From a virus (taxonomy: Duplodnaviria; Heunggongvirae; Uroviricota; Caudoviricetes), in IMG/VR virus record IMGVR_UViG_2703718873_000005: a stretch of 13,312 bases of DNA, one strand, 5' to 3'. Position 1 is the first letter of the stretch. Each line of letters opens with the position of its first letter. Below are positions 1 to 6,000 of the stretch, one piece after another. Position numbers: made by a program.

Positions 1-3000
1 AATGTGGGGAATCGTGTAATTGGTGGGCTTCGTGATGGTGTTCAGGCTGCGGATGCCGCAACCTATGGTCAGTTAGAGCGCTATCGTATTGCAGAAGAGA
101 ATGCCCGTATTCAGGGTGATGCACAGACACTGAAGTCTGCTAATACCTACACAGATAACCGGGTCAGTACCCTGGAGCGTAGTACTAATCAGCAATTCCG
201 TCAGTTACGTGATGAGGTGGAGAAAAACCGTAAACGTGCAGATGCAGGTATTGCAGGAGCAATGGCGATGACTGCCATTCCTGTTGTTGAGGGTAAAACG
301 TACTCCTTTGGTATGGCTGCAAGTAACTACCGTGATGAGCAGGCTATCGCAGCAGGTATGCACTTCCGCACCACTGAAAATTCTGCTGTACGTTTGAATG
401 CTTCATGGGATACCCAGAACGGTTCAGGTGTTGCTGCGGGTATGTCTGTCGGCTGGTAATTTATTTTTTGCGGAGAACGCCAGCCGTGTTGGTTATCGGA
501 AGCGTTCTCCGTCATCCTTCTGTCGCTGAAGACACAGCACAGTCACATTGTTCTTTTTTGTGGTGAGAGTGTGAGTGAAAAAATTCTCCGGTATATGCAG
601 CGTGTGGTGAGAAATTCCCGCAACCCTGAATTTATGAATGAAGTTAAAGACGCCTGCTTTAAAAAGCAGGCGTTTTGTTTTGAGGCACCTGATGGCTTTC
701 TGGTGCTGCGTTCTGTGCTCAGTGCTGATGGTATCCCTTATGTTCTGGTGTTGCTGGGCGTGTGTACGGGGAGTAACAGTGTTGAGCGTTATCTGCCGGA
801 GGTGAAGACATTAACCCGTCTGGCTGGCGGACGTTGGGCTGAATTTCATACGGCAAGGCGGGGATTTATCCGGCTGGGAAAACGTCTGGGCTTTGAGCGA
901 ATGCCGGATGATGAGGATGGCTTCATGGTGTTCAGGATAGCGGTCTGACTGCCACAGTTTTCATCATCGTGTTTAAACCAACATTGCAATTCACATTCTG
1001 ACCCTGCTCCGGCAGGGTTTTTTTATTATCCAGGGGGCCATTATGGGTGGAAGTAAAGGTGGTGGTGATACCAAAGTAAAACCAACAGCAGCGCAAATAG
1101 CACAGGAAGAAGTGGCCTGGAAAGGGTGGCAGGATTACAAAAATATCCTCCGCCCGGCTGAAGATAACTTCATGGAAAAGGTCGATGACCTGAACAGTGA
1201 GCAGCAGTACGACAATATTGCTGGCACGACAAATCTGGGGTATCAAAAACAGTTTGGCGAAGCGCGGAAGGAGCTGGCAAGTAATCTCACTCGGTCCGGT
1301 GTTGACCCGTCCAGTGGTCGCTTTAACGCGGTAATGAATGCGAACCAGAGTGATCAGGTAACCGGGCAGATTGACACAACCACACGGGGGCAGGTATCGC
1401 AGGCAGATAAGTATGTTGCCGGGCTACAGGATGTTGCTGCTCTCGGTTCTGGTCAGAAGGCGGATGCGTTACAGAGTTTTAACTCTCTGGCAGACAGCAG
1501 TCTGGCAAAAGCTAAATCGGATGCACAGGCGGCGTTTACGAAACAGCAGGGGCGAGCCTCTCTTGTTGGCGCTGGTCTGGGTGCGGCAGGTGCATATGCG
1601 ATGCATAAGGCTGGCGGTAGCGGAGGAAGTGGCGGTGCTAAAACACCTGGCACTGGCGCTAATGCCATTCAGCATCAGGCTCAGAACTGGAGACTGTGAT
1701 TATGGAGTACGGTAAATACGAAACACTTGCGAGATACGGTTATACCGGAGCAGCCCGCCCTCAGGGGGACTGGCAGACATCCGCAGCGCTGACCCGCCAG
1801 CAATACGACGACTGGCGCACCAGATATTTACCCCGTGTAGCAAGGCTGGCTGACCTTGGGGAGAACAACAGTCTGATGAATCCACAGCTTGCACGGGTGG
1901 GAGGCCTTGCCACTTCCAGTCTCCGTACAGCGCAGATGGCGCAGGATAACCAGATGGCGAGATACGGGGTAAGCCGCCCGGATAATCCCGACAGTAATAC
2001 GCTGGGGTTACGTAATGCCCTGGCAATAGCAGGTGCGAAAAATGGTATCCGTGAAGCCGAACAGGATCGCCAGATGAATATTCTGACGGGGGCTTCTGCA
2101 CCGGCAAGACAGAAACTGAGTGTTGGCGGACAACTGGTGGCAGCGTAAGGGGGCAATATGGGATACGGTTTACTGGATATTGCAAATCAGTCGCGGCGTG
2201 AGGCATTACAGGGAATAAGTGACGCAGACAGACGACGTACAGAGATTGAGGCATCAAATAAACAACTGGCTGCTCAACAGAAAGCTCAGAAAAAACAGAA
2301 TATCGGTACGGGCATTGGTACGGGGGCCACTATCGGGGCGACTGTTGGTTCAGCAGTACCGGTAGTGGGGACAGCCGTCGGCGCTGTTGCTGGTGCAGTA
2401 ATTGGCGGCATTGCAGGCGCTTTGTTTTAAGGAGTGGTGAATGAGCGGATTTGCACAGGGGTTACTTGCCGGATTCAGCACTGTTGACCAGGCAATGACC
2501 CGTCGTAAGGAGCTTGGTTTGCGAGAAGCACAGCTTGCTCAGCAACAGAAAAATAACGAGCGCGATTTTGAATTTGCGCAGTCTCAGTTTGAACATAATA
2601 AAGACGTTGATCAGCGGAACTTTGATTACAGAGCCAAAGTTGATGACCGCAATTACACACTGCAGGAAAGGGAGTTTAACGCCAACCAGAATTACCGGAA
2701 TGCGTCGCTGGGGATGGAACAGCAACGACTCCAGTTGCAGAAATACAACCAGCGACGGCTTGAGTATAACGATATGCTGGCGCGCGATCAGCCTGTGATG
2801 GCGGCGCTGGGAAAAGCGATTGATGCGGGTGACCATGATGCGGCTTCTCATCTGTTCGGTAAATTATCGGACGCCAATCCGCTTAAGATGATGTCAACGG
2901 TAGGCTATGCTGCGAAAGCGGGTCAGGCCGTGAACAACCTGCAGAAAATCTTTGATGATAAGCCGGACAGGGCGATTGCTTCGCTGAATACCCCGGAAAA

Positions 3001-6000
3001 TCTCGATGTGCTTTCCGGCGTGTTTGCCCCGGAACTACAACAGCGTATTGGCATGCCTGATTCAACCGGGGAAAAAACGATAAAAGAGGCCAGGATTGGC
3101 AGTATCGTACCGGCGCAGCAGGAAGGGTACGTACTTATTGGCCTTGATCTCACATACAGCGATGGCTCCACCGCGCATAAACCTGTAACAGAATACGGCA
3201 GTGCGCACCCTGATGATCAAACCGTGCTGGCGATACCCGTTGATAAGGCTATCGCTCAGGTCAGGGATCGCAGCAAATTTGCAGAGATATCGAAAAATTA
3301 TGGTTATTTTATGCCGAAGCAGCAGGGACTTTCTCTGAAAGAGCTTCAGAAGGGGGCCAGCAACGTAGCGGCGGACGCGATCAAGAATGGCGGTAATGCT
3401 CAGGCTGCGGTGGATGAATATTATGCTGCGACTGGTTCACAACCGCATCAACAGAAAATTCAGCAACAAAAACTTCAGCAACAGGTTATCAACTGGGCGG
3501 GAGATGATCCTGATAAGCTGTCATTTGCCAGAAATGTAGCGGCCCGTCAGCCTGAAATGCTGGAACCTCAGAATCAGAAATTGCTGGAGAACGGGTATGC
3601 GAATTTTCTCCGTATTCAAAAGGCCAGGGGGGAACAGGCCAGAGATGAAAGTGCTTCATCTGCATCTCAGTTTATCCGTGGACTGAAACAGAATTACGCC
3701 CAGTAATTCACGATATTCCATTAATACCATTTCCTGATGCCCGGCCATTGTGCCGGGTTTTTTTATGGAGTCTGTATGGCCTATTCAGAGGAACAGCGTC
3801 CTGAGGCGCAACTCGGTAACCAGAATCGTAACAGCCTGAACATTCAGCAACCCGGCGAAACTGACAGCTATGAAGCATTTTTCTCTGATCCGAATCGCTG
3901 GAAGGATAACAGTACGTCGTTCAGCCTGGGCGATGTATTGCCAACAATGGGTAAAGGTTTCGCCCAGTCCGTCCGGGGAACAGGGGAAATGGCCCGTGGA
4001 CTCGGTGATGCGATGATTCAGAGCCCGGTAAAAACAGGGGCGCGTATTTTAAATGAGTTCAGCCGTATGGGGCTGCCGGGTGTCGCAACTGTGCAGGATA
4101 TTTTTGCCGGTGGCAGCAGGGGGGCTGATGAGGTCATCGATACCCTGCCTGATGGCAAAAACGCGGTTACTGATACTGTCGGTAAAGGTCTGAAGGCAAC
4201 CGGTAAGGCTGTCAGTGATGGTGCTGAAGCCACTGATGAATGGCTGACCGGTAAGATGTCGCCGGGTGCAGTTCGTGCGCTGAATACGCCGATGACCGAA
4301 GGCTATGATGATTCTGCGGTCTGGGTGGCGAAGGGTGTAAACCTGATTGGTGCGCTTGTACCTGATATGGTTGTTGGCGGTGTGGCTAAAAAGGTGGGTG
4401 ATGTCACACTGCGAAAAATGCTGACCGCCGGGCTGGAGAAAAAATACATCGCGGCAGGGATGCAGCTGGAAAGAGCCACGGCACTGGCAGCAGAAGCTGT
4501 CGATAAAAAAATGCCGGATTTATTCCAGGCGGGCCTGATCACCCATTCCACAGCCAGTGCACAGGGGCAGAGTGCAATGGCGGCAGCAGATGCTGTTCTT
4601 AATGCGGATTACTCTGAGCTGGCGCAGTCACCGAAATTTCAGCAGACGTTTTTGTCCATTGACGCCGACCCGCAGCACGCACAGCTTACTGATCGCCAGA
4701 AAATGGATCTGGCAAAAGAGCGTGTTGCCGATGAGGTGCGCGCGCAGCTGGCAACCGATCCTGAATTGCTGGCTGTGAATGCCATGGCGGCAAAACTGGG
4801 TGACGCACAACTGTTTAATCTGGTGACACGAGGCACAGCGAAGACCGTTAAAAGCGGCATTGTCAGAAATGCCACGGAACAGGGGGCGATTAATGCGGCG
4901 CAGGGCGGCTATTCACGCTATCAGGAAAACACGGCATTGCGTGAGACCGCCGGAATGGATGTGTCACCGTGGGAGGGCGTGGCTGACGCAACGATCGAAG
5001 GTGCAGCCTTTGGTGCTGCGATGGGGGCTCCATCCGGTGCGGTTGCCGGATATCGTGGCAGACGTCAGGCCGCAGAAGAAACCGCCATGCGTGATGCTGA
5101 AACCGTGCAGCAGGACGACGCAGCCCCGCAACCAGAATCTGTTGATCCGGTGGCGCAGCAGCGTGAATCCATGCAGGGCATGAATCGCGAGCAGCTTCTG
5201 GAGCAGTATGCTGATGCGGATATGGCAACAGAGGGTGACGCATCCGCAGCTCATCGCCGGGAAGCTGCCAGCCAGTTGTTGAATGAACTGGACGAACAGG
5301 CGAAGCGACAGGCTGTGATGAATGAGCTGAAGGCGAAGCCGCGTTCTGAACTGCTTGAGGAATACCGCAGACTCAGCCAGAAAGAGGGGCGCACCGAGAC
5401 TGAAGAACAACAGTTTCAGGCAATACGAGAAGTCATTCGCCCACAACAGGAAGTGACGCCGGAAGCACAGTCACAGCCTGAAAATGCGGAGGATGGTAAC
5501 GGGAGCATTTACCCGACGGTGCGGTTCCGGGACCCGAATGAAGTCCGCATTGAAATTAACGGGAATGGTGCGTCCAGACCAGCGGAACGCATTGAAAAGG
5601 TGCGCCCGGACAACCGTTATTTCACGGATGAGAAAAGCGCCATGGGGAGTGATGTTTTCCGTAATGCCGCCGCTACCGGCCTGAAACCGTCCGTAGTGAA
5701 GAAAGGCGAGAATCAGTATGCCGTTGAAATGGATAATCCTGCGTTCTCTGAAGATGTGGCAACGGAAACCATTAACACCCTGGCTGACGGAGAGCGTATT
5801 GCTGATGCTGACCCGATGGAGCAGCCCGCGTTCATGCGTGACCCACGATTCCGTGGTTTCACGGGGGATGATACGGAGGTACAGGCCCGCCTTGCCCGTG
5901 GCAACGTGCCGACGGCAGAGGAGCTTGTACGTTCACAGATGGCTGAAGGTGATGCCGGTCCGATAGCACAGGAGTTAACTGAGCGTCCACGCCTGCCCGC

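Follow-up and report, generated by a model that had tools for sequence, protein, structure and literature searches.

Candidate intrinsic terminators ahead of promoterless virion genes in the distal part of the late region of a 933W/phi24B-type prophage, and their likely read-through under Q antitermination

The window analyzed here, 13,312 nucleotides of viral DNA, contains two hairpin–T-tract elements, T1 (1000–1024) and T2 (3739–3764), which are most likely real intrinsic terminators within a single phage late transcription unit; on this reading, to which we would assign a probability of about two in three, polymerase carrying the antiterminator Q reads through both elements in lytic growth, and both provide insulation in the lysogen. 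The original prediction placed hairpin plus U-tract terminators at these two positions, where we also find them, and proposed read-through by antitermination as in phage late operons. That proposal fits all of the context assembled below: a Q gene upstream, the co-orientation of the late genes, the co-induction of the flanking genes in phage phi24B, and the presence of the giant protein in virions.

Genomic setting of the window

A lambdoid prophage of the 933W/phi24B type (Traversvirus) is the source of the window, which corresponds to the distal part of its late region. Matches to E. coli prophages and Stx-converting phages span 92–100% of the window at 96–99% identity. Along it, the genes progress from capsid and tail functions of N4 type to an LPD38/LPD5 polyvalent protein. 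All of the genes relevant here lie on the + strand. Upstream of T1 is a gene recognized by its match to the phrog_610 profile (595–948); between T1 and T2 are gene 1 (1043–1699; phrog_611, a weak match to a virion structural family; vb_24B_44 of phi24B), gene 2 (1702–2148; phrog_596; vb_24B_45), gene 3 (2158–2430; vb_24B_46) and gene 4 (2441–3706; 421 aa; phrog_601; vb_24B_47). Gene 3 encodes a glycine-zipper protein that carries the database label "bacteriocin"; a "homolog of a bacteriocin" was present in the phi24B virion preparation, and was judged a contaminant by the authors of that work. Downstream of T2 is the gene for a giant polyvalent protein of 2792 aa (3776–12154; domains LPD5, LPD1, MuF_C and LPD38), which in phi24B is packaged in the virion and is a candidate ejection protein. 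The stop codon of the giant ORF is followed by a GC-rich 9-bp hairpin without a T-tract (12162–12183). Of 189 phage records that match, 186 contain T1, T2 and their flanking genes as a single conserved block (562–12191), which is kept in all relatives whether a YadA-like gene is present or absent.

The T1 and T2 hairpins

On the + strand, 94 nt separate the phrog_610 gene from gene 1, and T1 lies in this spacer, beginning 52 nt past the preceding stop codon, after a 51-nt stretch that is poorly conserved. Its stem (1000–1019, GACCCTGC-TCCG-GCAGGGTT) has 8 bp and a 4-nt TCCG loop, with seven T at 1018–1024. The hairpin has a predicted dG of −14.5 to −15 kcal/mol (z = −5.1), and none of 200 shuffles folds equally well. 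It was found in 66 of 67 related loci, having been deleted in one (L033); its T-run varies from 6 to 8 T, and apart from one variable loop base and one exceptional locus, tract length is the only difference among the copies. In locus L002 a G>T change weakens the stem. No covariation was seen across the 67 loci, and conservation of T1 relative to its flank was not significant (p = 0.19). Downstream of T1, the sequence reads as a Shine–Dalgarno motif, GGGGG (1033–1037), and the ATG of gene 1 at 1043 (together 1033–1045, + strand); variants of this motif among the loci are GAGGAG, still Shine–Dalgarno-like. A third terminator-like hairpin (649–681, + strand), with a 9–11 bp stem followed by TTTTGTTTT and a dG of −17 to −20, falls within the coding sequence of the phrog_610 gene, some 330 nt ahead of T1; it is kept in about 66 loci and shows no compensatory changes.

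T2 lies on the + strand, within the 69 nt that separate gene 4 (stop codon at 3706) from the ATG at 3776. Its stem (3739–3758, GCCCGGC-CATTGT-GCCGGGT) has 7 bp, six of them G-C, and a 6-nt CATTGT loop, with seven T at 3758–3764. The 46-nt stretch containing T2 folds at −17.2 kcal/mol (z = −3.4), and the hairpin alone, in a separate scan, at −13.1. Among 73 related loci, all seven pairs are kept across three sequence types (A, GCCCGGC/GCCGGGT; B, ACCCGGT/GCCGGGT; C, GCCCGAC/GTCGGGC), so that 100% of cells are paired, whereas shifting the 3′ partner by 1–3 columns as a control leaves just 29–43% pairing. Two of the seven pairs show two-sided compensatory changes: G-C to A-U at pair 6, and A-U versus G-C at pair 1. 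The T-tract comprises 7–10 T in all 73 loci. T2 begins 33 nt past the preceding stop codon, and the 32-nt spacer before it diverges freely between types. As judged by this alignment, the T2 stem is under selection.

Both hairpins are intergenic, follow stop codons and lie on the coding (+) strand. On the opposite strand neither T1 nor T2 is accompanied by a T-tract, and both would therefore act on + strand transcription only. A loose scan of the window for terminators gave no overall enrichment (12 found, 12.7 expected). Under strict criteria (a single hairpin with dG <= −13, followed by at least six T in eight nucleotides starting with TTT), the window yields four matches, all of them + strand, and zero on the − strand; in 100 shuffles that preserve dinucleotides, the count for both strands together was 0.38 ± 0.58 and never exceeded 2. 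These comparisons suggest that T1 and T2 are genuine Rho-independent terminators at which transcription would end. A Term-seq dataset for strain Sakai has been deposited under a GEO accession (PMC7547250).

The original prediction also asked whether the giant ORF starts at 3776 or at 3737. The question is a real one, because GenBank HM208303 annotates the upstream ATG; at the level of sequence comparison, it is settled in favor of 3776. The Shine–Dalgarno motif GGAG (3767–3770) and the ATG at 3776 (together 3767–3778, + strand) are invariant, the site GGAGTCTGTATG being identical in 73 of 73 loci. PGAP annotates the start at 3776 in the closest genome, and residues 1–2792 of the giant protein align with positions 1–2793 of the phrog_616 profile. 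The upstream in-frame ATG (3737–3739, + strand), which shares a base with the start of the T2 stem, has no preceding Shine–Dalgarno sequence, and the codon is ATG in stem type A only; type B has ATA there, and type C has ACG. In type C loci, moreover, 2–4 additional bases lie between the 3737 position and 3776, and the reading frame between the two is therefore not kept.

Promoters and the late transcription unit

A promoter scan found no promoter-like site on the + strand in positions 1–12497 of the window, and none was found within about 150 nt upstream of T1 or T2. In a relaxed scan, the best sigma-70-like match upstream of 1043 or 3776 reached 7/12; for comparison, the spacer before the next gene (near 12486–12527) reaches 9/12. 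The earlier statement that no convincing sigma70 promoter precedes the first gene therefore holds, and extends to the giant ORF.

The likely source of transcription lies far upstream. The window itself contains neither Q nor pR′, and its linkage to them, as read from records 96–99% identical to it, is probable. In records 97.6–99.1% identical, a Phage_antitermQ gene (PF06530; E = 9e-45 in L080 and 9.5e-52 in L002) lies on the same strand, about 27–32 kb upstream of the window equivalent. Past the end of Q come a promoter-like site and then a tR′-type hairpin, AACCCGCCGATGCGCGGGTT, with a T run; at that place HM208303 is annotated with pR′, qut and terminators. From Q to the giant gene, nearly all annotated genes are on the + strand, the exceptions being a few short or overlapping minus-strand ORFs, and the late unit also includes scattered morons (lom and others) that have promoters of their own. 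Strong hairpins with T-tracts on the + strand follow stxB, precede S, and follow R, the portal gene, the major capsid gene, the next gene and lom, with T1 and T2 beyond; between lom and gene 1, the + strand carries three terminators. The series sits in non-coding sequence, which makes up 8.6% of the late region; counting T1 and T2, the unit has about ten comparable + strand terminators between genes. An operon starting at 1043, as originally proposed, is thus not what we find: the transcription unit starts a long way before the window, and the five genes at 1043–12154 are the tail end of a late unit of roughly 30–40 kb, with no separate operon.

Expression data from phi24B bear on how this unit behaves. 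Published RNA-seq upon norfloxacin induction gave increases of 8.3-fold for gene 1, 7.0-fold for gene 2, 7.3-fold for gene 4 and 5.6-fold for the giant gene, so that genes on both sides of T1 and of T2 rise together. The giant protein is also reported to be abundant in purified phi24B virions; given this and the similar induction across T2 (7.3-fold and 5.6-fold), T2 is unlikely to be a strong barrier in lytic growth. All of these are fold changes, obtained with pooled samples at a single time point, and those for phi24B genes 47 and 48 are not statistically significant (P = 0.059 and 0.309); partial termination is still compatible with them. Fold induction declines along the operon, from about 130 at S to about 6 at the giant gene, a trend that would equally fit cumulative partial termination. 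phi24B lysogens express lom, which is uncoupled from the phage regulatory circuit and rises only 3.0-fold upon induction, and the genes downstream of lom are induction-linked.

Probable read-through, proposed insulation and alternative roles

From these observations we infer termination at T1 and T2, its override by Q-loaded polymerase, and insulation in the lysogen. During lytic growth, transcription would initiate at pR′, just downstream of Q and about 27–32 kb upstream of the window, where Q would load onto RNA polymerase. Lambda Q builds a nozzle onto the RNA exit channel, and this keeps the terminator hairpin from forming (PMC9388147). Q-loaded polymerase would likewise withstand hairpin-dependent termination, and would therefore pass tR′ and the later intergenic terminators, T1 and T2 included, so that genes 1–4 and the giant ejection-protein gene could be transcribed without a local promoter. 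In the lysogen, Q would not be produced and polymerase would remain unmodified; polymerase setting out from nearby moron promoters that are active in the lysogen (lom, hok/gef, YadA/Eib-like genes) or from spurious sites would then stop at the hairpins. T1 and T2 would probably block such polymerase as it arrives from neighboring morons, keeping the ejection-protein genes silent. Terminators within late operons are common in lambdoid phages, and their roles are described as not known (PMC8022706).

It is conceivable, if unlikely, that termination here is programmed to be partial, some polymerases stopping at T1, T2 and the other terminators despite Q. The resulting stepwise fall in mRNA dose would adjust how much of the distal late proteins is made relative to the proximal ones, leaving, for example, less mRNA for the giant protein than for genes 1–4. 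Such a role is listed among those possible for terminators of this kind (PMC8022706), and the phi24B fold changes do descend from 134 for S through 96 for stx, 75 for the small terminase, 30 for the portal gene and 15–22 for tail genes to about 7–8 for genes 1–4 and 5.6 for the giant gene. However, the step across T2 (7.3 to 5.6) is small and inside the noise of a pooled single-time-point experiment, and the gradient is uneven at terminators (30 for the portal gene, 49 for the next gene) and is also explicable by distance from pR′ together with differences in basal level. The described abundance of the giant protein in virions, and the description of Q-loaded polymerase as termination-deficient (PMC9388147), likewise argue against it. 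An extension of this idea, which we regard as slightly more doubtful, is that the roughly ten intra-operon terminators act as a "resistor ladder" that partly escapes Q and grades mRNA over the 35-kb unit; T2 would then fix how the output of the ejection protein (2792 aa) compares with that of its four small partners. In a variant of the same proposal, T1 or T2 would bound stable sub-transcripts or 3′-derived small RNAs that are regulatory in the lysogen.

Other readings would assign the hairpins a function apart from late-gene dosage. They might act mainly post-transcriptionally, on mRNA half-life more than on the place where transcription ends, either as 3′ barriers that shield pieces cut by endonucleases from the long late mRNA against exonucleases, or as 5′-proximal stabilizers of the downstream segment. 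The T-tract-free hairpin at 12162–12183 suggests that hairpins are favored at gene ends, and comparable ones are present after the portal and major capsid genes; but T1 and T2 hold an uninterrupted run of at least 6–7 T in every locus, a feature needed for termination and not for blocking exonucleases, which makes this reading improbable. It is very unlikely that either element provides the 3′ end of a short Hfq-binding lysogen RNA comparable to tR′/StxS or HnrS. EHEC prophage late regions do encode small RNAs that end at intrinsic terminators (PMC7547250; 10.1101/2025.11.27.690950), yet neither element has an Rfam match or a promoter-like site within about 150 nt upstream, and the published small RNAs map elsewhere, StxS to pR′–tR′ and HnrS to prophages Sp9, Sp10 and Sp12 (PMC7547250; 10.1101/2025.11.27.690950). 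Least credible is that T2 (or T1) is the terminator arm of a switching leader, whether attenuator or riboswitch, for which only position speaks, each terminator standing directly before a ribosome-binding site. The terminator hairpin persists in both MFE and centroid folds of 121-nt contexts, its 5′ arm has no alternative pairing, and these contexts show no excess of structure over shuffled sequences (z = −1.4 and +0.7). The short spacers (32 and 51 nt) yielded no leader peptide, ligand-binding domain or competing antiterminator fold, and neither element matches an Rfam family; the hairpins, starting 33 and 52 nt past the stop codons, also lie beyond a terminating ribosome's reach. The suggestion that regulated attenuation limits giant-protein expression accordingly finds no support here.

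Q-dependent read-through with insulation in the lysogen would place T1 and T2 among known systems. The lambdoid Q late operons (pR′–qut–tR′ of lambda, 82, 21, 933W and H-19B) share Q with a promoter-like site and a tR′ hairpin upstream, a co-oriented unit of stx or moron, lysis, head, tail and ejection genes, and promoterless downstream genes with intrinsic terminators within the unit. Relative to lambda, nothing differs in principle, although the unit here is longer (about 35–38 kb when measured from pR′ through the giant gene) and its virion module is N4/GP4-like podoviral, not lambda-like; the closest genome has a type I restriction-modification moron in place of stx, and two pR′-like sites. 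The tR′/StxS terminator of Stx phages is a canonical intrinsic terminator from the same phage family, with read-through under Q control, but it lies about 258 nt from pR′ and gives an abundant Hfq-binding sRNA in lysogens (PMC7547250), whereas T1 and T2 are situated tens of kilobases further downstream and lack a promoter close by. As in moron cassettes (lambda lom, bor), lysogen-expressed lom, hok/gef and YadA/Eib-like genes adjoin the module, and the terminator that follows lom is in keeping with such a cassette, T1 being a possible further barrier downstream; T1 and T2, however, sit inside the conserved block 562–12191, and the genes they precede are promoterless virion and ejection genes. 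A moron cassette was itself considered for T1 and T2 and ruled out, no promoter having been found and the block being conserved in 186 of 189 records.

A further precedent is given by the P22-like phages L and P22, in which predicted Rho-independent terminators likewise lie between virion-gene modules under a single Q-type-controlled promoter, with the same candidate roles of partial termination or of halting non-antiterminated transcription (PMC8022706). The lineage and genes differ, and covariation support for T2 and the indirect phi24B read-through data are specific to the present case. The arrangement of T1 and T2 is ordinary and of a kind already described, and in lytic growth Q most likely overrides these terminators.

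T1, T2 and their conservation

The original prediction placed canonical hairpin and U-tract terminators before gene 1 and before the giant ORF, and both are present on the + strand. T1 comprises an 8-bp stem with a TCCG loop (1000–1019) and seven T (1018–1024), followed by the Shine–Dalgarno sequence GGGGG (1033–1037) and the ATG (1043) of gene 1. T2 comprises a 7-bp stem with six G–C pairs and a CATTGT loop (3739–3758), again with seven T (3758–3764), and is followed by GGAG (3767–3770) and the ATG at 3776. These were the top two + strand terminator-like sites of the window in a consensus scan; on folding, the T1 hairpin has a dG of −15 kcal/mol (z = −5.1), and the 46-nt stretch around T2 one of −17.2 kcal/mol (z = −3.4). 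A loose terminator scan of the window gave no overall enrichment (12 found, 12.7 expected). Under strict criteria, applied with our own script (a single hairpin with dG ≤ −13, then at least six T in eight beginning TTT), the window has four matches, all of them + strand with the − strand empty, and 100 dinucleotide-preserving shuffles gave 0.38 ± 0.58 for both strands combined, with a maximum of two. The predicted terminators exceed chance.

Seventy-eight related loci were gathered from viral contigs and metagenomes. The family of gene 4 (421 aa) is narrow: relatives in viral contigs, one genome per species, metagenomes, and the protein database are 74–100% identical, and those with an organism name are all E. 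coli, bar one 552-bp "Xanthomonas" contig in the one-genome-per-species search. That contig (L051, NZ_JPLE01000287.1, from a Xanthomonas pisi assembly) carries the gene 4 N-terminus at 93% identity and most likely reflects contamination of that assembly by E. coli phage DNA. T2 is present in all 73 loci that reach its site, with at least seven T in every locus and three stem types (GCCCGGC/GCCGGGT, ACCCGGT/GCCGGGT, and GCCCGAC/GTCGGGC). The stem alignment is paired in every cell, with two of the seven pairs changed on both sides, and shifting the 3′ arm by one to three columns as a control leaves 29–43% pairing. Because the 32-nt upstream spacer and the gene 4 C-terminus diverge strongly between stem types while pairing persists, the T2 stem is under selection. 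T1 occurs in all but one of 67 loci (66); its stem differs only in T-tract length, apart from a G>T change in one locus (L002), and one loop base is variable. No T1 covariation was detected across the 67 loci, nor is T1 significantly more conserved than its flank. Since only relatives of 74–100% identity were found, covariation evidence is confined to the three T2 stem types, with none for T1.

Several loci differ locally. Locus L033 has lost T1 and gene 1 through a deletion that fuses the pre-T1 spacer to the interior of gene 2, and in loci L042 and L048 the gene 4 match begins only at residue 76. In the window, the glycine-zipper gene ("bacteriocin", 2158–2430) has 21 nt (7 codons) more than its counterparts in the closest genome (L001, 20157–20408) and phi24B, reflecting an in-frame indel in a Gly-rich repeat.

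The late transcription unit

Short-tailed phages that convert for Stx1 or Stx2 (VT2-Sakai, the PA series, phiSTEC1589) cover 87–100% of the window at 96–99% identity, as do prophages in 434 of the 5426 complete E. coli genomes; the close relative phi24B is classified as a Traversvirus. The best records run Q, stx or a moron, lysis, terminase, portal, N4-type capsid, and tail genes; there follow lom, hok, a YadA-like gene, phrog_610, genes 1–4, and the giant protein. From Q to the giant protein these lie on one strand, the exceptions being a few minus-strand ORFs that are short or overlapping. Pfam assigns the Q proteins to Phage_antitermQ (E = 1e-45 to 1e-52), and Q is followed by a promoter-like site and then the hairpin AACCCGCCGATGCGCGGGTT with a T run, at the position where the phi24B depositors annotate pR′, qut, and terminators. 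Given this gene order, the Q match, and the post-Q promoter-like site and hairpin, the five genes called an operon are the distal end of a lambdoid late transcription unit whose promoter lies 27–32 kb away. At 99.1% identity, the closest genome (L080, NZ_CM143724.1; region 14857–19461) holds a prophage without stx, in which a type I restriction–modification pair, HsdM and HsdS, lies between Q and a second promoter-plus-tR′-like copy (19384–19461); this genome has two candidate pR′ sites, at 15279–15306 and 19384–19411.

The promoter search agrees with the earlier failure to find a convincing sigma70 promoter upstream of gene 1: a consensus scan recovered no + strand promoter-like site in 1–12497, and relaxed consensus and extended −10 scans gave at best 7/12 upstream of 1043 or 3776. 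TATTAT (1024–1029) was rejected as a −10, its candidate −35 being only CTGACC or TGACCC at 19–20 nt spacing, with a leader of ~7 nt. The relaxed scan did recover 9/12 matches in the AT-rich spacer (~12486–12527) before the next gene, which encodes a YadA-anchor protein with a signal peptide (12516–13312). This gene and another YadA-anchor gene at 4–459, both + strand and both of the trimeric autotransporter, Eib-like kind, flank a conserved block at 562–12191; they look like lysogen-expressed morons and are missing from most relatives. T1 was considered as part of the upstream moron and rejected, as it sits in the block common to phages without that gene. At the other edge, a 9-bp GC-rich hairpin (GCCCCGTAC-GGAA-GTGCGGGGC, 12162–12183, +) lies 8 nt past the giant ORF stop, with a T-tract on neither strand; homology to most Stx phages stops just beyond it, at ~12191, which places the hairpin at the boundary of the conserved module.

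T1 and T2 belong to a longer series. Whole-region scans of two relatives recovered about ten strong intergenic hairpin–T-tracts on the + strand of the late region: tR′, T1, T2, one preceding S, and one behind each of stxB, R, the portal gene, the major capsid gene, the gene next to that, and lom. Because the late region is 91% coding, this intergenic placement is far from random; within the late unit, T1 and T2 are nothing special. A further strong terminator-like hairpin (649–681, +) lies inside the phrog_610 coding sequence (595–948), at about codons 19–29; its stem has 9–11 bp (dG −17 to −20), with TTTTGTTTT directly after it. It is kept in ~66 related loci, without compensatory changes, and it and T1 form a barrier in tandem ahead of gene 1; three + strand terminators separate lom from gene 1.

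Probable antitermination and alternative roles

Q proteins join RNA polymerase at pR′ and stay with it as it moves, and the nozzle they form at its RNA exit channel keeps terminator hairpins from forming (PMC9388147); in Stx phages, Q action allows pR′ transcripts to get past tR′ and reach stx and the late genes (PMC7547250). A Q-loaded polymerase would likewise pass T1 and T2 and transcribe genes 1–4 and the giant gene, which would explain their expression without a local promoter. The proposal of read-through under antitermination, as in phage late operons, thus appears right in substance, with Q upstream, a late-unit context, and induction of the flanking genes in phi24B. That phage has the same T1 and T2, and 40 min into recovery after 1 h of norfloxacin its gene 1 was induced 8.3-fold, gene 2 7.0-fold, gene 4 7.3-fold, and the giant gene 5.6-fold (PMC4651098, Table S4). 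Its giant protein is reported to be abundant in virions and missing from the reconstruction, and has been proposed to be a packaged ejection protein (2026 preprint). Induction and virion presence together lend indirect in vivo support to read-through. In the phi24B lysogen, expression of lom does not depend on the phage circuit, and genes downstream of it are induction-linked. Unmodified polymerase arriving in a lysogen, for example from lom, would be stopped by the terminators after lom, inside phrog_610, at T1, and then at T2, suggesting that these act as insulators.

Terminators within late operons are described as common in work on phage L, with roles unknown; the two options raised there are partial termination and the blocking of non-antiterminated transcription (PMC8022706). 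Partial termination is the main rival reading. It is compatible with the fall in phi24B fold induction along the operon, from ~130× at S to ~6× at the giant gene (S 134, R 118, stx 96, small terminase 75, portal 30, tail genes 15–22, genes 1–4 ~7–8; PMC4651098, Table S4), but the fall is equally compatible with promoter distance and with basal levels that differ between genes, and there is only a small step across T2. The gradient could reflect timing, basal level, or cumulative partial termination. It is also possible that the hairpins serve purely in RNA stability, although this would leave the strictly kept T-tracts unexplained.

A regulated attenuator or riboswitch is disfavored, and the suggestion that attenuation limits giant-protein expression found no support: no alternative fold was found, the spacers are short and poorly conserved, and Rfam at a permissive threshold returned nothing at T1 or T2, its three sub-threshold chance matches all lying around the hairpin at 639–678. 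Were T1 and T2 the 3′ ends of sRNAs, a promoter would be expected, and none was found. The giant protein was also considered as an N4-like virion RNA polymerase transcribing these genes itself, and this was rejected; its Pfam domains (LPD5, LPD1, MuF_C, and LPD38) include no polymerase.

The giant ORF start and implications

The original prediction held that T2 bears on the choice between starts at 3776 and 3737, and the comparison places the start at 3776. An ATG at 3737 occurs in stem type A only; type B has ATA there and type C has ACG, and in type C two to four extra bases ahead of 3776 also break the frame; GGAGTCTGTATG is invariant in all loci, and both PGAP and the PHROG profile use 3776. 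Some GenBank records nonetheless place the start within T2, which yields a spurious "leader peptide". Among them, the phi24B record (L081, HM208303) begins the giant gene (29149–37572) at the equivalent of 3737 and notes a SignalP "putative leader peptide"; this is the translated T2 hairpin and T-tract, and the annotated start is probably wrong. The predicted N-terminal peptide is (M)AYSEEQRPEAQLGNQNR from 3776 and MPGHCAGFFYGVCMAYSEEQR from 3737.

The arrangement of T1 and T2 is ordinary for a regulatory system that is already well understood, and nothing unusual is suggested. What is new here is the corrected giant-gene start codon and the covariation support for T2, with little significance beyond annotation. 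In the commonest Shiga-toxin phage type, read-through would explain promoterless expression of four small genes and, after them, the gene for the giant ejection protein. T1 and T2 are also convenient, well-defined test cases for a modest question raised earlier for other lambdoid phages: whether late-operon terminators only block unmodified lysogen polymerase or also tune dosage. Because Stx production also relies on this Q-modified transcription complex, any leak or partial termination within the late unit bears on toxin-phage biology.
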